Of a DNA stretch of 64,000 bases, positions 3,401 through 32,504 are shown piece after piece. The stretch is taken from assembly GCA_000004985.1 (NCBI GenBank), contig GG738863.1; one strand, written 5' to 3'. The position numbers and the translations under genes were made by a program. This stretch comes from Naegleria gruberi. Lineage: Eukaryota. Position 1 is the first letter of the stretch. Every line of letters starts with the position of its first letter. The notes under the pieces are model-generated. The model was not told the origin of the DNA, searched no databases, and saw nothing but the letters and a program-made list of their open reading frames with translations.

Positions 3401-6199
3401 TTATTTCTTCTTTTTGAAAAAGTTGACAAGTGTAATCTTGAAATTCTTCTTATTCTTCTTGTCGTCGTTAAATTCTGGGAAACAATTCTTTTCGAATACT
3501 ATGGCATTTCTTTGTTCTGGTTCGTGCTCGTTGTAGAATCCTTCCAGATCCAATTCATCAACTGCAGCTCCTCCATCCGTTCCACCACCATTATGGTGTT
3601 GCTGATGCTGTTGTTGATACATATTGTTGTTGTTAATATTATTATTATCATTGAAACCTGTATCAAACAGTTCATTGAATTGATCGAGAGAAGCTGGCGT
3701 GTTGGTACTGTTTCTACGACCAGTTCCTCCTCCAATACTTCTTCTGACCTTTCTCTGTTTTTCAATACTTCTTCTCTTATCTGAACTGTTGGATCTTCTG
3801 CTTGTTGCACTTCCATCTGAGCCACCACTACGGTCACTGAGGGCTGCTGGGGAGGTTGGTCTAAATTCATTATTGAAAGAATCAAAGTCATCTTCATTGT
3901 TTCTATCAATTGACTTCTTTCTTCTGTTAGTTGGCCCAGCAGAGTTGCTTCTCTTTGTTCTTCTTTGAATTGAGGCAGAGTTTTGTGAACTTGGAGAATT
4001 TGGTAAACTATTGAGAGAAACATTAGGACTTTGAACACTGGTTGGAGTGGTCACTGTTGGATTTGGAGGAGTTGATACTGAAGAACCATTAGGAGTATCT
4101 CCCGAATAACTCTTATAATTATTATCATTGGAAATTTCACTTCTGAAATTGTTAAAGAAATTGGTCCATGTGTTTCTCTTGGACTTGACATGAGATTGCA
4201 TCATTGGTGAACCTCCTTTAGCTTGATTCTTTTGTGCTGCATAATTCTCATAAATAAATGTAGTATTATTTGATCCAGCATTTGGTGGCATGCCATGGTT
4301 TGCATTGTTATTAACAGAATTATTCTTATTTGGAGAAGTAATTTGATTATTGCCTGACATGGATCTGTTACTGCCTTGTTGTTGATATTGTGAAATATTA
4401 CTCGATGATTGGAGTGATAAGGCCTGAATTTGTTGAGAAATTTCATTAACATTTACAATATTATTTTGAGCCATTGTGCTCTCAACAGTTGGATTAACAA
4501 TAACAGTTCTCATTTGTTGAGATTGATTACTCATCATATTTTGAGGTTGAATAATGATATTTTGAGGTTGATTATTGAATCCTCTGTTATTGGAATTTTG
4601 ATTCATCATTTGATTATTATTGTTATTCATTACTAAACCTCCACCGACCATGTTACCGTTATTATTATTGGAATTGTTGGAATTATTCATGCCTGACTCT
4701 AGGACTGGCAAGACAACAGAGAAGAGTTTTCTCTTCTGTTCATCTGACATGGATTGAACAAGAATCTTGGCCATTTGTTGCACTTCAGATTGGTTGACTT
4801 GTTGTTGTGGATTGAATTTTTCCAACCAAGTAGAGATCAAATTCTGGTGATCAGAACTCGAGGCCAAATAACTTCCTAAAACTTGAAACAGGGTATTATC
4901 AATTTGAGAACTGGCAAATGGAGTAGTGTCAACTTGAGCATTATTGGAGAAGATATTGTTATTTCCTGCCAGAGTTTGGAAGATGATACTTCCAAGTTGT
5001 TGTTGCTGTTGTTGTTGCACTTGTTGCATGCCATTATCTGCTGGTGCCAAAACTATGAAATTAGGTTGTTGTTGTTGTGGTTGTGATTGAGAATTGGAAT
5101 TGAAGATTTGTTGAGTATTGTTATTATTGACATTTGTAGCAACACCACCAAATGATGATGTTGATGATTGTGGTTGAGAATTGAGCAATGAGAGCAATTG
5201 ATAGAGATCATTATTTTGTGTTTGTGGTTGTTGTTGTTGAATGATGGTTTGTTGATTGCCAACTGGGAAGATAATGGTAGGTGCATTGTTATTATTGGAT
5301 ACAGTATTGAATTGATTATTGTTATCATTCATAAAGTTGGAAGTTTGACCATTGGTGGCAACAATATATGGTTGACCATTGATGATGACATTATTATTCA
5401 TCATGTTATTATTCATTGAATTATTGTTGGTATTAGTACCAAGAAAATCAAAATCTTCCATGTTGGAATTGTTATTCATTTGGAGGTTGAAGGCTAAACA
5501 TGCAATAATGATTCATGTAGTAGTTTAGGATAAACACATATTAGAATAAATTACTATAAATTACTTACCATCCAAAAGTGAGGTATCAATCGTATTAAAA
5601 CTATTATTACCAGCATTAATAGTTGTTGTATTATTATTAGTATTATTACCACCAAGTAACAACATTAAACTCTCATTAGTATTATTATTTCCATCGAAAA
5701 GGGAAAAATCGTTGGAATTATTCAAATTTGAAGGATTGATAATAAAAGTTGGTTGATTTTGATTTTGATTATTATTTGGAGAGGCAGCCAATTGAATTGA
5801 ATTATTAAATTGTTGTTGCTGATTATTATTGGCAGTCGAACCATTAATAATCATAATTGGTTGTACATTATTATTATTAGATGGTAATTGATAGATAATT
5901 GGTTGTTGTTGCTGTTGTTGTTGTCTGGGACTCAATTGATTTGGATCAATTGCAATGAAATTTCCATTTCCATTGTTGTTATTGTTTGTATTCGGTGTTA
6001 GGAACATAAAGTTATTATTATTATTGCCATTATTATTCATCATGTTATTGTTAGGAACAATGGTAGCACCCATACTATTGTTATTATTCGAATTATTCGA
6101 AGTATTATTATTATTGTTTATCAACATCATTGTAAACGGTTGAGTATTTGAATTGTTATTATTATTCATACTCGTAGAATTATTTTGCTGAAACATCAT
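3401..6199 (-). CDS. Gln/Asn-rich low-complexity protein of about 880 aa with a C-terminal Arg/Ser-rich region (prion-like). Two exons: 5569-6199 and 3401-5493.
   Basis: The ORFs 5561..6199 and 3401..5479 join in-frame across an intron at 5494-5568 (GTAAGTAATTTATAG...TGTTTAG on the minus strand). The junction reads ...SLLDG|AFNLQMNNNSNMEDFDFLG. Long poly-N and poly-Q runs. RS-like stretch SRRSNSSDKRRSIEKQRKVRRS. Confidence 0.6.
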
Positions 6200-25965: not shown

Positions 25966-26550
25966 TTGAAAAACACAGTTCATTATTCAAATATAATAAA
26001 AATGCACAATATAAACACCGCAAACATGATGAAATCCTCAATTTCGAATAGAGAAAAGGAAGCAGCAACAGTGGAAACTATTCTCAGTAGTGGCAATAGA
26101 TGTGATACTTTAGGTCATGAATTAGGTAAAGAAAATTCAGAATTTGAAAGGAAACCTCCCTCTCCAAGGATTAATTATAAGAAATACGTCCTACCTTTCT
26201 ATCCGAATATGAATTTAGGTGGTCCCAGCAATCCTTCGACAGTTTCTAATGAATTATTTCGACAATATTCGACAGATGTTCTTAATAATCAGGATGAAAC
26301 AATTGAGGAAGCTGAGGATAAATTAGATTCGTATGAACCTGCCTCAAACTCTTCACTCTTTACAATAGTTGGAATGGAAATGCTTGAGAATGGTTTTACA
26401 TCACTGTGGCAAGATTTAAGCATTCTGGCCACACAAGTTAGAGCTGGTCATTTAACCATTGATTCGTATAGAGCTATCCTAAAGCTTTCGTTGGTTTTAA
26501 TTATTTTTCTCCTATTGTTTGTATTCATTTCGAGTGCCTTTGTTGAATAG
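25966..26550 (+). CDS. Hypothetical protein with a C-terminal hydrophobic (tail-anchor-like) segment. It ends at a single in-frame TAG immediately followed by the next long ORF.
   Basis: ORF of 194 aa. C-terminus LKLSLVLIIFLLLFVFISSAFVE*. Same reading frame as 26551..30591. Confidence 0.3.
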   Translation: MKNTVHYSNIIKMHNINTANMMKSSISNREKEAATVETILSSGNRCDTLGHELGKENSEFERKPPSPRINYKKYVLPFYPNMNLGGPSNPSTVSNELFRQYSTDVLNNQDETIEEAEDKLDSYEPASNSSLFTIVGMEMLENGFTSLWQDLSILATQVRAGHLTIDSYRAILKLSLVLIIFLLLFVFISSAFVE

Positions 26551-26631
26551 TTGCACGACTCCAATAAACAACTTTCCCGCCAAAAAATACTACAATCTCA
26601 AACTCTAACTTTGAAAAAAATATCTCGACTA

Positions 26632-29600
26632 ATGAGTTGGAAATACTACGGAGTGGTTTTTCTCATGTTGATCGCGTTTTTATTCTTGATTGGTGTTTTG
26701 GGAAGTGGAAATTTGTTGTTTGTGGAAGGAAATGAAAGGATAAAGAAATTTGAAAGGATTATTTGTCCTGAATCGAAGAGTTTGGTCTATTCATTTAAAT
26801 CAATTACCTTGGTTGGTAATAAGATTCAATCAAAAAGTGTTTCTGGAAGTGGCCAATTGGAAAATGTTTTCAGTGGAAAAGTTGTCTTATCATGTCAACA
26901 GGAAATGAATCATGATTGGAGGAATATTATCGTTGTCAGCTTCTCAGAGTCGATATTTGAACAATTTCATGGAAGAGGTTTAAATAAGAGATATAGGAAA
27001 ATGATTTCTAGAGCTGATCTTACGAAAGAGTTGAATGAATTTCCAATGATAATCATTCAATCTTTTTCAGGGCATATTTTCAAATTGATATTTAATAAGA
27101 GGGAGACAGCTTACATCAAAACAATGAAAAAAGGAATATTAAGATTGTTGACAACTGACACCAAAAAAGATGCCAGGCATCAAACAGATGGATTTGGAGG
27201 GAAATATTTCCAAGAGTACAAGAAGAGTTTAATATCCAAAAAGCCAGAGTTTTTGACAGTTTATCAAGAATTTTCCAGCAAGGACTTTTACAAAATTCCT
27301 ATTTCAAAACGAAGAATCAATTACCAAGCTAAACATTTAGTTACTGTTGATATTCAACACCACTGGATACATCACGCTTCAATGTTGATCAGCCTAAGCC
27401 ATCAACAAACGAAAAACTCTAATATTTTCAAAGAATTTGAGAATATTTCAAAGAGGGAGTCTGTTCAATCCTCACTTAAATCGTCAGATAATGTTGAATC
27501 TGGACTATACTCCACAATCAAGCTTAACAAGATTGTCAACATATCGATTGCTTCATCTATAGAAAACTTTAACGATCTTATTAGATCAATGTTGAACAAT
27601 ACAAGGTCTCAGAATGACTGGATGTTCGAAAATACATTTTCATCAAAGAAATTGGACAAAAGATATTTCTCCCTGTTAAACAGGAGGAAATTTTCAACGA
27701 TTCACTTTCAAAAACTTCTTTCATTGCTCAAAGGAGATCCTTCACTCCAGCACAACACAACAAGATTGGTAGGAATTGTTTCAAACTATAAAAAGTTGGA
27801 CACTATTCAATCAGCAAGGATATTATTGAATCATCTCGTTGAAGGCTTGCACAAGCTCAACAAGCTAACCGGAGCCGAATATCTCTCAACCAAAACCTAT
27901 TTGGAAATCATTCAACAATTAGTTGCAACGACAAGAAACGAAAATATCCAAAATGATCTTATAGCTATATCATCAATAGAGCCAGTTCTTGCAAACAATT
28001 ACATCTACTCATCCATTAATATTCAAAGACCTAGCTCAAATGTTTATTCATTTATTAAACATTTAAAAAACCATGGATTGAAGTTTATATCACATAACAT
28101 TACATCTGAATCAAATTCAAATGTAAAAAGAAACGCTTACCTAGCATTTGCAGACCTTGCACATAGACTGCAAGATAAGACTCTTAAAGATACTATTGTA
28201 AGAGAAATTTTGGACAGTATAGAAAATGCAGAATCGAAAGAAGACATCGAGACCCACTTTCATGCTCTAAACAATGCCGGTGAAGCAGTAGATCCCTATC
28301 TGTTATACGCAATATGGGCTTCTGACAAGATTCCAGAATATTTCAAAATTCTATTAACAAAGAATATAAGAAAGAGGATAAAAGATGACCCAACCTTAGA
28401 TAGAATTATTCTTAAGATTTTGAGGAGTGAGGATGAAAATTTCTCTCCAAATTTAAAATCAAACTTGATTGAATCCCAGGGAGAAAGAGAGTATATATTG
28501 AATACATGGTCGTTGGTGAAACCATTAGCAAGAATTTACAAAGTTGTGAGAGATGAGGGCATCAAGAGTACAATACGAAAGTACATGTACAATGCAGGAA
28601 CTGATAATTCAGCAAAATATCTTTCAAAGATGCTAAACAAGAAACAGAGGCATAATAGGAAAATCAAAGGCAATGATTATAGAAAGTTTGGGCTCTCCAA
28701 TGAAGATTTGGATATTTTGAATCAAGTTGAAACAAGGAATGCCTTATTTATTGGCGGATTCATGAGAAGGATTCAAGACACCCTCTCGAAAGGAAAGGAA
28801 AAGATGACCCTCTTTGTAAACAAATCCCTCAAGGAAGGGATTCAAAAAGCATCTAATTGGGTTGAAACCAAAGCTGCAGGAGCTCTCTCCAAAATTACAA
28901 AACTTGTTGGAGATTTGAAATCCAAATTTGCTTCCCCAGCAACAATACGAGATGAGAAGGCTTGCATTCAAGTGAGTGAAAATATCAATGACACTGTTTG
29001 CTTCTACAATACTGACATGATTTCTTTCTTTCAAAAACAAGGAAATTTATCCAATATGAAATTCTCCAAACATTTTGAATTTGAAAAGATTGCTGGCCCA
29101 AAGGCTGTCAATCTCTATTGTGGAATGGCCATTTATAGTGGAGCCTCATTTGACTGCAATGCAGATAAGAGTTATTTTGATTTTGTTCTCATTGCAAGAG
29201 CAGCCTTTGAAGCAAGTGCTCTACAACGAAAGTTTTCACTATTAGAATTGAGTGCAGAGCTCACCAAAAGACCACATAAACCAGTTAGGGACAATATTTA
29301 TCTAAGAATTGCTCAGACAACATTTGTCAATACAGGTTTTGTTCCAGAGCAAGTGAAAAAGTTTATTTCCCTTTGTTTGAGTGAAACTAAACCAATATTT
29401 GAAAAGACGTTTCCAGTCATTGCAACGCATGAACAAATGGTAAATATAGGACCAGTACCATTGACTTTTCATATTTCACTCTCAATGCGTGTTGCAGTAG
29501 AGTTGGTTTATGGTCTGTGTGTTGAACGATTGGAAGCAGCCACGTCTTTGGAGCCATATGTATCAGTTTCATTGACTGGTGGAGCAGCTATTGGAATACC

Positions 29601-30591
29601 AGTAGCAAGAGCAGGGATGTATATTCGATCTACTCTCACATATCGACTTGTACCAAGATTGGCTTTTGAGAAGTGTAATATCTGTGCCAGCTTACAACAC
29701 AAGGTTGATAGCTTGGAATTTCAAATAGGGTTGAGTGCAAAAGTTTTAACTTTTGACAAGTATTGGAAATTCTATGGTAAAACAACAAGACCCTATATCA
29801 AAACAATCTTTGAAAAATGTATACCTCTATTTGGTTCACCTACTGTTTCCATTAAGAGCAAGGATACCACCTTTGATTTGAAGTCCAATGAGGAAACTGG
29901 AAGTAACTCTCAATCACTTTCAAATGAAGAATACTCAACTCAACAAGTTGATGTGAAAACCATCAACACAGAGGATGAAACCAATACCAAATCAAAAGAA
30001 TCAATCTCTTCATACAAACCCCTATTTGGGTCAAATCCAATGAAACTTCCAGAAATGAAGTTACCAACAGAGAGTAAGGAAAGTCTCAAACCTCCCCCAA
30101 CAGAACAGCCAGAATTGGAATGGAAATTAGAATTTCTATCTCAACAAGTGCCTCATAAAATCATACAAAGATTTGGATTGGAAAACTTGAGAAGACTTCC
30201 CTCAAATTATTTCCAATTGACTGAAGAAGAAAGAGAAAATATTCCCTATGAAGTTTACTACCTCCCAAAGAGTGACTTTTCCAATTTCATATCTAAATTC
30301 AGTCCCACAAGCATGTTAAGGAACTCGGCAATATCACCTCTCTCGTTTGAAAGATTATGGAGAAGAGAAGTATTGGAAGGGAGATTCCCAATTCAAGTGT
30401 TGAAACAAATTCCCTTAAAAGATTTGAGAAGTCTCCCAGAACCAATCATTCGTTTAAGAAAAAGGATTTTGCAAGAAATTCCTCTCCAGCTCTTCAAAGA
30501 AGGATATCAACAAATTAAAAGTTGGATATGCTCAAAGTACTACCACTTATGTAATGAGCTTGACACCTTGATAGTGATGAGAAGTGAATAA
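26632..30591 (+). CDS. Large secreted or type-II membrane protein of about 1320 aa. Weak resemblance to the helical domain of large lipid transfer proteins (vitellogenin/apoB/MTP).
   Basis: ATG at about 26632 gives MSWKYYGVVFLMLIAFLFLIGVLGSG (signal or anchor). An internal ALNNAG motif (HFHALNNAGEAVDPYLLYAIW) is reminiscent of the conserved ALGNAG of LLTP helical domains. Otherwise unrecognised. Confidence 0.4.
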   Translation: MSWKYYGVVFLMLIAFLFLIGVLGSGNLLFVEGNERIKKFERIICPESKSLVYSFKSITLVGNKIQSKSVSGSGQLENVFSGKVVLSCQQEMNHDWRNIIVVSFSESIFEQFHGRGLNKRYRKMISRADLTKELNEFPMIIIQSFSGHIFKLIFNKRETAYIKTMKKGILRLLTTDTKKDARHQTDGFGGKYFQEYKKSLISKKPEFLTVYQEFSSKDFYKIPISKRRINYQAKHLVTVDIQHHWIHHASMLISLSHQQTKNSNIFKEFENISKRESVQSSLKSSDNVESGLYSTIKLNKIVNISIASSIENFNDLIRSMLNNTRSQNDWMFENTFSSKKLDKRYFSLLNRRKFSTIHFQKLLSLLKGDPSLQHNTTRLVGIVSNYKKLDTIQSARILLNHLVEGLHKLNKLTGAEYLSTKTYLEIIQQLVATTRNENIQNDLIAISSIEPVLANNYIYSSINIQRPSSNVYSFIKHLKNHGLKFISHNITSESNSNVKRNAYLAFADLAHRLQDKTLKDTIVREILDSIENAESKEDIETHFHALNNAGEAVDPYLLYAIWASDKIPEYFKILLTKNIRKRIKDDPTLDRIILKILRSEDENFSPNLKSNLIESQGEREYILNTWSLVKPLARIYKVVRDEGIKSTIRKYMYNAGTDNSAKYLSKMLNKKQRHNRKIKGNDYRKFGLSNEDLDILNQVETRNALFIGGFMRRIQDTLSKGKEKMTLFVNKSLKEGIQKASNWVETKAAGALSKITKLVGDLKSKFASPATIRDEKACIQVSENINDTVCFYNTDMISFFQKQGNLSNMKFSKHFEFEKIAGPKAVNLYCGMAIYSGASFDCNADKSYFDFVLIARAAFEASALQRKFSLLELSAELTKRPHKPVRDNIYLRIAQTTFVNTGFVPEQVKKFISLCLSETKPIFEKTFPVIATHEQMVNIGPVPLTFHISLSMRVAVELVYGLCVERLEAATSLEPYVSVSLTGGAAIGIPVARAGMYIRSTLTYRLVPRLAFEKCNICASLQHKVDSLEFQIGLSAKVLTFDKYWKFYGKTTRPYIKTIFEKCIPLFGSPTVSIKSKDTTFDLKSNEETGSNSQSLSNEEYSTQQVDVKTINTEDETNTKSKESISSYKPLFGSNPMKLPEMKLPTESKESLKPPPTEQPELEWKLEFLSQQVPHKIIQRFGLENLRRLPSNYFQLTEEERENIPYEVYYLPKSDFSNFISKFSPTSMLRNSAISPLSFERLWRREVLEGRFPIQVLKQIPLKDLRSLPEPIIRLRKRILQEIPLQLFKEGYQQIKSWICSKYYHLCNELDTLIVMRSE

Positions 30592-30731: not shown

Positions 30732-31982
30732 TTAGAGCTTTCTCTTTTCCTTCAAAGCTTGGAGTTTCTTTTCATCTTCCAATCTCTTTTGTTCCAATTG
30801 CTTCTTTCTTGGACCTAAGAACTTGTTCTTTTCGGTAGTGGTTTGGAATTTACCCTTACCAACCTTGGAGGTAGTATCGATAAACTTCAAGACAATTTCT
30901 TCCTTCATGTCTCTGCCCCACTTGTGTTCTGGAACCAAAGTCTTTCTCAAAGTGACAACTCTTCTTGGTGGACCTTGAACGTTACCCTTGACCATAACCC
31001 AGTCGTTTTCAACAACACCATAGTTAACAAAACCACCCATTGGGTTGACATCCTTTTCAGTCAAATCGAAATCAGTCATTGCGGACTTCTTTCCTTCTTC
31101 AGTCTTGTTGGACTTTCCGATTCTGTAGATCTTCTTATTTTGGTGGACTCTGTGGAAGAAACCCTTTTGACCAGCTCTGGCAACAGAGAAGGAAACTCTA
31201 GCTGGATGCCAAGCGCCAATACAGGCAACCTTTCTCAAACCTCTGTGGGTCTTTCTTGGCAATCTTCTAACACCCCATCTGGAAACGACACCCTTAGTAC
31301 CCTTACCCTTGGAGACGGCAATAACGTCGATTGGTTCATCCTTAGCGAAGACAGAGTCAACAGAGACGAGCTTTTCGAGGTTAGCAACAGCGAACTTGAT
31401 CTTTTCATCAACAGTACCACCGTTAACTTGGATTTCAGCAACGTGAGCCTTCTTGTTGTTAGTGGCAGTAACCTTGCTTGGTTGAGTGTGAGCAACAATT
31501 CTGATAACATCAGCGTTCTTCTTGAATGATTCCAAAGCTTGAGTTCTCTTTTCTTGAGCAGCTTGTTCCAAGTAAGTCTTGGTGAGCTTAGTGAAAGCTC
31601 TCTTCTTGGATCTACACCAATCCTTATAGTAAACTCTTCTGAATTCATTGCTGATATTCTTAGCCCAGACAGTACCGATGGCCTTCAAACCAGTTGGGGT
31701 TTGCTTATAACCAACAACACCGACAACAACCATTGGTGGAGCTTCAATGATGGTGACAGCATCGAGACCTTCCTTCTTGTGCATCTTAGAACCTGGCTTG
31801 TTAACTTCACGGACAATGTGGGTCATACCAGCCTTGTAACCAAGGAAAGCAGTCAAATGAGTAGCCTTCTTTTGGTCATCCTTTGGGAAAGCCTTAACTC
31901 TACCTCTTTCTCTTCTAGCCTTCTTTCTTGGCAAGAAACCAAGAGAACCGTGTCTTGGTGCTTCAAACTTTCTGTGAGACAT
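30732..31982 (-). CDS. RPL3: 60S ribosomal protein L3 (uL3).
   Basis: [22 protein letters not shown]...[35 protein letters not shown]...; 416 aa, intronless. Classical uL3 sequence including the W255/H256-region motif. Confidence 0.95.
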
Positions 31983-32504
31983 GTTGTTCTATTTTTTTTT
32001 CAACGATTTTTATTGTTGGAGCAAAAACTGGGTTGATTTTATTTCTTACAATGAATATTTTTCATGTCATCACCAGGTGCTTCAGCAATTTTTATGAAGG
32101 CCATTCTATTTTTATTAGACAATTTTCCCACCAAAGCAAACTTCAAGAGTGAACACGAGGTTTCACACAACAAGTATTTACAATCCAAGTTTTTCAACAC
32201 CTTATTAACAGGATTTCATTCTGAAGTATTCAATTCATTGGCAATATCATCATACCCGTGTACCTAACTCATTCTTGTAATGTGTGGAGTATTGAAAGAT
32301 ATTTATTGATCATCGATACAACCATCAGAAGAGAGGCCTTTATTATCCATAGAATTTGATTTGGTAATTTCAAAAAACGATAATAATGATCACAATCTCT
32401 GACAAATCACCAGAATATCCAAACTCTCATTTCAATCAGCATAATAACGTAAGAAACCTCACCCAGCACTTTCAAATTCTCTCCCAACACACACATGAAA
32501 AAAT

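Follow-up and report, generated by a model that had tools for sequence, protein, structure and literature searches.

The large lipid transfer proteins (LLTPs) include the large subunit of MTP, vitellogenin, apoB and apolipophorin. MTP in the strict sense is a resident of the endoplasmic reticulum (ER), where it is an obligate heterodimer with PDI and loads an LLTP of the apoB type. A recent structural paper (PMC12214520), which cites Smolenaars 2007, describes LLTPs as serving circulatory lipid transport in animals and ties their emergence to multicellularity. Here we analyze a locus in the free-living amoeboflagellate Naegleria gruberi (Heterolobosea, Discoba) that lies in a stretch of 64,000 nucleotides from contig GG738863.1 of assembly GCA_000004985.1 (hereafter, the window). 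Two open reading frames (ORFs) of the window, 25966-26550 and 26551-30591, are on the + strand in the same frame, and the second of them encodes a protein with LLTP-like features. The interpretation that we favor, with a probability of roughly 0.86, is that this locus contains two neighboring genes and that the larger one encodes a divergent LLTP that enters the secretory pathway.

Among the described systems that we compared, the MTP large subunit (human MTTP; PDB 6i7s and 8eoj) is closest to the downstream protein, both in size and as the best match in profile and Foldseek searches. The order of the parts is the same in the two proteins: a signal peptide, an N-sheet barrel, a helical domain and, at the C-terminus, a domain of ~290 aa with two sheets. 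The compact core, which is residues 34-1065 in N. gruberi, amounts to ~1030 aa in short paralogues, compared to 894 aa for MTP. Identity to MTP is ~10%, and the Naegleria protein differs from it by an extra basic amphipathic insert and a 250-aa tail that consists of a linker and two repeats.

Vitellogenin and lipovitellin (lamprey, 1lsh; honey bee, 9enr and 9ens) have the ALxNAG motif in common with the Naegleria protein and are secreted by way of a signal peptide, as the Naegleria protein is predicted to be. In contrast to vitellogenin, the Naegleria protein has no vWD domain, no Pfam match to DUF1943 or the open beta-sheet, no polyserine or phosvitin region, and no CTCK. Its beta-sheet domain (~290 aa) is far smaller than the yolk-lipid cavity of vitellogenin, and Naegleria lays no eggs. 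The downstream protein is not a vitellogenin, notwithstanding the UniProt label "Vitellogenin domain-containing", which denotes a domain and not a function. We also compared the N-terminal beta-alpha1 region of apoB-100 (9bd1, 9e9r) and insect apolipophorin II/I. Unlike apoB and apolipophorin, the Naegleria protein does not have the amphipathic beta/alpha belts that wrap a lipoprotein, and it is about one-third as long. Compared to automatically annotated protist proteins, the N. gruberi entry is unnamed and is missing 164 residues, and the repeat tail is found in the long orthologues only.

Results

LLTP homology of the downstream protein

Continuous translation of 25966-30591 contains a single internal stop, the TAG at 26548-26550, and the first in-frame ATG 3' of this stop is at 26632. 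These coordinates and the shared frame are as given in the original prediction, which was made from the nucleotide sequence and its ORFs. The gene that starts at this ATG has the following features:

26632..30591, + strand: downstream gene, encoding a 1319-aa protein to which orthologues align from residue 1 to the end
26632..26730, + strand: predicted signal peptide (residues 1-33); no other segment of the 1319-aa protein is hydrophobic
26764..27636, + strand: N-terminal beta-barrel (the LLTP "N-sheet"), residues ~45-335, with conserved C45 and C88, from strands in the AlphaFold2 (AF2) model and profile matches
27124..27126, + strand: M165, the start codon of the truncated public N. gruberi model (P0001, which begins MKKGILRLL)
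27649..28686, + strand: alpha-helical (HEAT-like) superhelical domain, residues ~340-685, with ~18 helices in the AF2 model
28255..28296, + strand: HFHALNNAGEAVDP, residues 542-555, LLTP helical-domain signature (ALxNAG), from conservation of HALNNAG
28687..28941, + strand: basic amphipathic helical insert, residues 686-770, between the helical and beta-sheet domains, net charge +6
28954..29826, + strand: C-terminal beta-sheet domain, residues ~775-1065 (~290 aa), from AF2 strands, the predicted counterpart of the C and A sheets, which in LLTPs make up the lipid pocket
29827..30126, + strand: low-complexity S/E/K/T linker, residues 1066-1165 (S16, E13, K12 and T11 per 100 residues)
30127..30588, + strand: C-terminal module of two ~70-aa tandem repeats (internal repeat, BLASTP E 5e-6)

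It had been proposed, from the resemblance of HFHALNNAGEAVDP to a motif in the helical domain of LLTPs, that the downstream protein might belong to this family. The motif holds up under comparison. HALNNAG (H544-G550) is invariant in all seven of the closest family members, N548 is at least 90% conserved among 37 family sequences, and HMMER aligns the family's "hvhALnNagkavp" to "lALKALGNAGQPNS" of lamprey lipovitellin and to "LLALKNA" of human MTP. Judging from these alignments, the ALxNAG motif is more than a chance resemblance and is homologous to the LLTP motif.

The broader proposal of LLTP membership is supported by profile matches, by Pfam matches in relatives, and by fold matches. When the core profile was run exhaustively with HMMER against 1.84 billion representatives, 184 relatives came up at E <= 1e-3. 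A word-indexed search that started from the family alignment yielded nothing further. At least 11 of the relatives (P0019, P0016, P0020, P0082, P0009, P0078, P0040, P0058, P0013, P0043 and P0049) are above the gathering score of PF01347 Vitellogenin_N (24 bits). Matches in relatives extend over profile positions 76-552 of 590, and the best one, P0019 from Percolomonas cosmopolitus, scores 57.6 bits over positions 76-531. The family profiles reached MTP and lipovitellin only after the exhaustive search had supplied more distant relatives. With 20 sequences, the profile matches lamprey lipovitellin at E 4e-4 and, through its positions 8-364, residues 2-361 of the human MTP large subunit at E 2.4e-9. 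With 37 sequences, E falls to 2e-17 for MTP and to 2.4e-15 for lipovitellin, where a single alignment of profile positions 110-573 to residues 76-531 takes in both barrel and helical domain.

Comparisons with PF01347 and DUF1943 had been suggested along with the proposal, and they gave a mixed outcome. For Vitellogenin_N, the relatives above are positive, and one of the seven closest sequences matches (P0007, E 1.1e-8). The downstream protein by itself stays below the threshold: its first 343 residues alone align residues 49-185 to profile positions 5-128 with 21.0 bits and E 1.4e-4, where the cut-off is 24. For DUF1943, VWD or related Pfam families, neither the downstream protein nor the six relatives closest to it gave a match, with E values as high as 1 admitted.

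The predicted structure agrees with the profiles. We modeled residues 1-1068 with AF2 from a 20-sequence alignment (mean pLDDT 77.1, pTM 0.49). In order, the model has a signal helix, strands at 49-333, ~18 helices at 340-685, the basic helical insert, and strands at 777-1065, and thus the barrel, helical superhelix and C-terminal beta sheets expected of the large lipid transfer (LLT) fold. By blocks of 10 residues, pLDDT is mostly ~50-92 in the barrel, with two low-confidence loops (258-264 and 273-286), mostly 76-93 in the helical domain, with 53-63 in its last 20 residues, and mostly 68-89 in the C-terminal beta domain; residues 701-753 of the insert are below 50. Foldseek, which had also been suggested as a check, returned LLTPs as all of its top 11 matches, including MTP (2.5e-25), lipovitellin (2.4e-20), bee vitellogenin (7e-19) and apoB-100 (4e-17). 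The next match after the LLTPs was at 9e-4, and generic ARM/HEAT proteins appeared only at ~1e-3. Alignments to MTP had 1119 columns for a target of 862 residues. An earlier AF2 model made from 7 sequences was poor (pLDDT 55); its Foldseek ranking was the same.

Several results weigh against the interpretation that we favor. The full-length 1319-aa protein alone has no match in Pfam and, by phmmer, no match in the PDB, and the 7-sequence profile found nothing relevant in the PDB. Global TM-scores to LLTP structures are 0.3-0.4 (with the pTM of 0.49), and the model does not establish the packing of the domains or the pocket. The C-terminal beta domain has no match to animal LLTPs, MTP included, that is detectable by sequence; only the barrel and helical domain do. 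Membership therefore comes by way of transitive profile evidence and a structure that is predicted, not solved. Finally, the upstream gene has no homologue anywhere, and the case for a functional gene there is made from ORF length and codon usage.

Some of these results could be accounted for if the downstream protein were no true homologue of LLTPs and its beta-rich region and HEAT-like helices simply attracted generic repeat similarity. Designed alpha-Rep/HEAT proteins also score 9.3e-17 with the 37-sequence profile, and the low global TM-scores and ~10% identity to LLTPs are in line with this possibility. However, the sequence matches to MTP and lipovitellin cover the beta-barrel and not the helices alone, the Vitellogenin_N matches in relatives span 76-552 of the 590 profile positions, and MTP has its domains in the same order and a C-terminal beta domain of matching size. 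We consider generic similarity very unlikely. Based on the profiles and the predicted fold, we conclude that the downstream protein is a divergent member of the LLTP superfamily.

Topology, conserved cysteines and lineage-specific parts

A signal or anchor had been noted on the downstream protein, and it corresponds to one N-terminal hydrophobic segment, residues 1-33. The position of this segment is conserved, with an equivalent in P0002-P0005, P0009 and P0010, which is the pattern expected of a protein that enters the secretory pathway. Cleavage is likely after FVEG, which is aligned with VES of the orthologues, as judged by the -3/-1 rule. There is no C-terminal KDEL or HDEL in the downstream protein, which ends in ...LIVMRSE. 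MTP itself is retained by means of the signal that PDI carries.

No part of the family is conserved more widely than the C-terminal beta domain (profile positions 865-1120 in >80 matches). This domain contains nine Cys at columns that are fully or nearly fully conserved in the family, plus the non-conserved C830. C778, C790, C842, C915, C963, C1015, C1018 and C1063 do not vary among the seven closest sequences. In total, ten Cys of the predicted luminal domains are invariant in these seven sequences, and most are at least 90% conserved in the 20-sequence alignment. These ten conserved Cys fit a luminal or extracellular protein.

The insert between the helical and beta-sheet domains varies in length. 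In N. fowleri, N. lovaniensis and Willaertia it consists of K/R/A/V-rich repeats of >100 aa (alignment A1, columns ~860-960 in P0002-P0005), for example RRVGHAFRRVGHAFRKVG in N. fowleri. Single members have weak Pfam matches in this region to Apolipoprotein A1/A4/E (0.0061) and to the CAP18 LPS-binding domain (0.071). The insert could be a membrane- or lipid-binding element, or could even resemble an antimicrobial peptide. The linker that follows the beta domain cannot be aligned among orthologues and is missing from the short paralogues. The repeats after it have the pattern W-x2-E-x-L-x3-P...L-x2-LR-x-LP...IP, then W-I-C-x6-C. This C-terminal module is conserved in the long orthologues P0002-P0005 only, is absent from P0006 and P0007, and has no Pfam match and belongs to no known family.

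Correction of the public gene model

For the downstream gene, the public N. gruberi model (P0001) has 1155 aa and does not include the first 164 residues (window 26632-27123). The downstream ORF has a codon-usage score of +0.185 in its own frame (scores here and below are in bits/codon, with 16 long ORFs of the window as reference). Within residues 45-164, 17 columns are invariant across orthologues. Because these residues are conserved and the orthologous signal peptides line up with that of N. gruberi, the real start is at 26632. Missing from the public model are thus the signal peptide and the strands with which the N-terminal domain begins, and these strands carry the sole direct Pfam Vitellogenin_N signal. 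This truncation probably explains why the N. gruberi entry is an unnamed "predicted protein" while its orthologues carry names.

The boundary between the two genes

The sequence on the 5' side of the downstream gene has these features:

26002..26550, + strand: upstream gene, encoding the 182-aa orphan protein P0008 and ending with the stop TAG 26548-26550, from identity to a public protein and from codon usage
26485..26544, + strand: predicted C-terminal transmembrane helix L162-V181, followed by E182 and the stop, from hydrophobicity
26551..26631, + strand: intergenic spacer, 81 nt, with the 3' untranslated region of the upstream gene and the 5' region of the downstream gene

We conclude that the TAG junction is an ordinary boundary between tightly packed genes. 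According to this interpretation, the locus would contain two independent intronless genes on the same strand, 81 nt apart, whose common reading frame is a matter of chance. Such a coincidence is not rare. Random 81-nt stretches of the window are stop-free in a given frame 29% of the time, and with a 1/3 chance of a shared frame, a junction of this type (same frame, single stop) is expected with a probability of ~0.1 per closely spaced tandem pair. TAG is also the terminator of 5 of the 31 long ORFs in the window. TAG is thus a regular stop in the window. Taken with the evidence below, the junction calls for no readthrough, nonsense allele or sequencing error, and none of the three is supported.

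The spacer itself looks non-coding. Its composition is 42% A, 27% C, 25% T and 6% G, compared to 18.5% G in coding sequence, and five of seven other tandem spacers in the window are likewise poor in G on the sense strand (8-11%). The 27 codons of the spacer have an in-frame codon-usage score of -0.29. There is an AATAAA at 26563-26568, 13 nt past the TAG. The original prediction was right that the spacer is not AT-rich; its GC content is 33.3%, compared to 33.75% for the window, with no AT enrichment. The standard against which it was measured was that of a dictyostelid, and the source was taken to be an amoebozoan. Both proteins are 100% identical to entries from N. gruberi. Because this organism is a heterolobosean, a comparison with AT-rich dictyostelid intergenic DNA is inappropriate. 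Two genes with an unusually short spacer had been listed among the possibilities. The two genes stand, but the spacer is not unusual, since further tandem spacers in the window are 62, 81, 129 and 146 nt.

The window contains a second pair of ORFs on the same strand and in the same frame, 3401-5479 (-) and 5561-6199 (-), with exactly 81 nt from stop to ATG. The spacer in this case holds three in-frame stops, including the terminator. This pair shows that tight neighbors that share a frame are routine in the N. gruberi genome.

Comparison of the orthologous loci, another of the suggested checks, supports two genes. Four orthologues are known to us from the searches: N. lovaniensis (1432 aa), N. 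fowleri (1551 aa), Willaertia magna (1473 aa) and one environmental sequence (1464 aa). Each has its own Met and predicted signal peptide at the position of ATG 26632, followed by a conserved "CPxxxxLxYxF" block, and none has anything akin to the upstream protein or any N-terminal extension. With orthologues and paralogues taken together, five sequences begin with a signal peptide and this block. The neighbors on the 5' side are different. In N. fowleri, the gene 5' of the orthologue encodes cofilin, and in N. lovaniensis it encodes an unrelated 647-aa protein; both are on the opposite strand. A tblastn comparison of the upstream protein with the orthologous loci of N. fowleri and N. lovaniensis found no match. 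The public N. gruberi annotation likewise has two separate proteins. Removal of the TAG within an intron was also considered and rejected, given that the orthologues have no introns and begin with the signal peptide.

Programmed readthrough of TAG 26548, which had been raised as a possibility, would produce a fusion protein of ~1540 aa. The ORFs are indeed in one frame, and the 27 codons from the TAG to the ATG are free of stops, but 81 stop-free nucleotides in a shared frame are expected about once per ten pairs. In the fusion, a tail-anchor helix followed by a signal peptide would be internal to a single chain. Neither the upstream part nor an N-terminal extension occurs in any orthologue, and the sequence past the stop has neither the conservation nor the composition of coding DNA (codon score and G content as above). 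The context of the stop, TAG TTG CAC, is not of the CAR-YYA type, which is the readthrough motif of tobamoviruses. Readthrough at this site is therefore highly improbable.

A sequencing error or a strain-specific nonsense allele could also place a single stop between two ORFs in the same frame, by splitting one ancestral gene of 4.6 kb. However, the ancestral gene starts at the signal peptide in Naegleria and Willaertia, with the orthologues beginning at the position of ATG 26632, and the upstream part has no counterpart in any relative. In addition, the upstream protein ends one residue past a transmembrane helix, as a natural C-terminus would, and the 182-aa protein is a separate entry in the public annotation. 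An origin of the junction by error or mutation is exceedingly improbable. The ordinary gene boundary accounts for the junction without either of these assumptions.

The upstream gene

Over its entire length, the upstream protein matches "predicted protein [Naegleria gruberi]" (P0008) with 100% identity. Apart from this N. gruberi entry itself, there was no homologue in 5.8 billion proteins, and no Pfam family was found. The upstream ORF has a codon-usage score of +0.16 in its own frame, the level of known coding sequence, and scores of -0.71 and -0.97 in the other two frames. Its GC content by codon position (0.42/0.36/0.29) is equal to that of the known genes in the window. The protein is hydrophobic only in the segment L162-V181 (Kyte-Doolittle maximum 3.08); its N-terminus has no such segment. 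A single helix less than ~30 residues from the C-terminus and no signal peptide are the features of a tail-anchored membrane protein, and we predict that the upstream protein is one. Because the helix ends one residue before the stop, TAG 26548 is the natural terminator of the upstream gene. This gene is separate and is not the N-terminus of the large protein.

It is also conceivable that the upstream ORF is not a functional gene but a spurious or decaying ORF, or that it lies within an extended 5' leader that belongs to the LLTP gene. The failure to find a homologue or a Pfam family, described above, would be expected in that case. On the other side, 182 codons are unlikely to occur by chance in DNA of 34% GC, the codon score and codon-position GC are equal to those of known genes in the window, the topology is coherent with a tail-anchored protein, and an AATAAA follows 13 nt past the stop. 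We think it unlikely that the ORF is non-functional, and favor a gene for a small tail-anchored protein.

The S/T/E/N-rich middle of the upstream ORF (26227-26382) and the linker of the downstream gene (29902-30063) have a tblastn similarity of 30% over 54 aa (E 0.009). This similarity is most likely compositional.

Orthologues, paralogues and distribution

The direct orthologues FDP41_004846 (N. fowleri) and C9374_013309 (N. lovaniensis) are 36-38% identical to the N. gruberi protein over 96-97% of its length. UniRef names both "Vitellogenin domain-containing protein". Proteins named in this way or as "lipid transport family" are FDP41_004846, FDP41_013614 and FDP41_013485 in N. fowleri and C9374_013309, C9374_013447 and C9374_003836 in N. 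lovaniensis, and there are others in Percolomonas cosmopolitus, Anaeramoeba ignava, A. flamelloides and Pelomyxa schiedti.

As sampled from cluster names, relatives extend well past Naegleria. In Heterolobosea they are found in three Naegleria species, Willaertia magna, Percolomonas cosmopolitus and Pharyngomonas kirbyi. Others are in Anaeramoeba ignava and A. flamelloides, in the archamoeba Pelomyxa schiedti (KAH3763393, "lipid transport family protein"), in "Eukaryota sp. TZLM1-RC", and in many metagenomic contigs. All of the automatically annotated protist relatives carry the C-terminal beta domain, and many pass PF01347.

One class of relatives, of ~800 aa, has mainly the Cys-rich C-terminal beta domain in common with the rest, and its helical part scores as HEAT repeats. 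Its members (P0058, P0062-P0065, P0068, P0072, P0078, P0082, P0093 and P0107) are from Percolomonas, Pharyngomonas, Willaertia, Anaeramoeba, Pelomyxa, Eukaryota sp. TZLM1-RC and metagenomes. Several of them pass Vitellogenin_N, and the class does not have the repeat tail. From these sequences, the class looks like a compact, MTP-sized family of protist LLTPs that is spread over several supergroups.

Paralogues of ~1030 aa, P0006 in N. lovaniensis and P0007 in N. fowleri, do not have the C-terminal tail. As annotated, they also do not have the N-terminal hydrophobic segment. Either their starts were mis-called or these proteins are not secreted.

We also considered a recent horizontal transfer from an animal. 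This is unlikely, with identity of ~10% to all animal LLTPs and several protist lineages holding the family.

Neighboring genes

The gene that converges on the LLTP gene, 30732-31982 (-), is 140 nt from the LLTP stop and encodes ribosomal protein uL3 (Pfam Ribosomal_L3, 523 bits). The uL3 gene accounts for a local GC content of 0.44-0.48 and for the spurious overlapping + strand ORFs 30843-31529 and 31539-32036. Other neighboring genes encode proteins without a family or LRR proteins, and the neighborhood gives no clue to function. No tRNAs occur in the window, and the region examined is free of tandem repeats.

Discussion

The analysis of this locus suggests how the N. gruberi LLTP might work. 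The 1319-aa protein would enter the secretory pathway by means of its N-terminal signal peptide. It carries a complete LLT module in the canonical order, with an N-sheet barrel, a helical superhelix, and a ~290-aa beta domain for a lipid pocket. The two sheets of the C-terminal domain, with the helical domain behind them, would by homology with MTP and lipovitellin form a hydrophobic pocket that takes up and releases lipid. We infer from the signal peptide and conserved Cys that the protein acts in the lumen of the ER or a later compartment, or outside the cell. The small size of the pocket domain suggests a soluble shuttle or carrier of individual lipids and not a bulk yolk protein or lipoprotein. 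The basic insert and the repeat-bearing tail appear to be lineage-specific additions, and they plausibly bind membranes or partner proteins.

N. gruberi prefers lipids as a growth substrate (PMC6205838), and oxidation of fatty acids has been explored as a drug target in N. fowleri (PMC6205838, PMC7526813). Given the lipid preference of N. gruberi, a role for this protein in the acquisition or distribution of lipids is plausible.

Our literature search found no relevant paper on LLTPs or vitellogenin-like proteins in Naegleria or other protists, with most subscription journals outside the search, and the tags of the orthologues were not found in the supplements of an N. fowleri multi-omics paper. 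It appears that the protist branch of the LLTPs has been labeled automatically in databases but is undescribed in the literature. One practical outcome of the work is that the public N. gruberi gene model is corrected by the addition of 164 residues at the N-terminus.

An LLTP outside of animals had been put forward as phylogenetically interesting, and this point stands, even though the host is not an amoebozoan. The profiles and the predicted fold show that a free-living unicellular excavate has a complete LLT module and that LLTPs extend beyond animals. Heterolobosea, Anaeramoeba, the archamoeba Pelomyxa and an unplaced eukaryote have an MTP-like family whose members share a Cys-rich C-terminal beta domain. 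Protist LLTPs conflict with the usual view that the family originated with lipid circulation in animals. We speculate, at somewhat less than even odds, that the LLT module is an older eukaryotic invention, that the N. gruberi protein shuttles lipids in the lumen or after secretion and so serves lipid nutrition, and that lipid transfer of the MTP type long predates the lipoproteins built on apoB and vitellogenin.

The importance of these findings is modest as they stand, and would be higher if a phylogeny placed the protist family at the origin of the animal LLTPs or if the protein were shown to transfer lipid. The protist family offers an outgroup for rooting the tree of MTP, apoB and vitellogenin. 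For Naegleria, the N. gruberi protein is a predicted secreted lipid carrier with an orthologue in N. fowleri, FDP41_004846, and is thus a candidate for a function in lipid acquisition.

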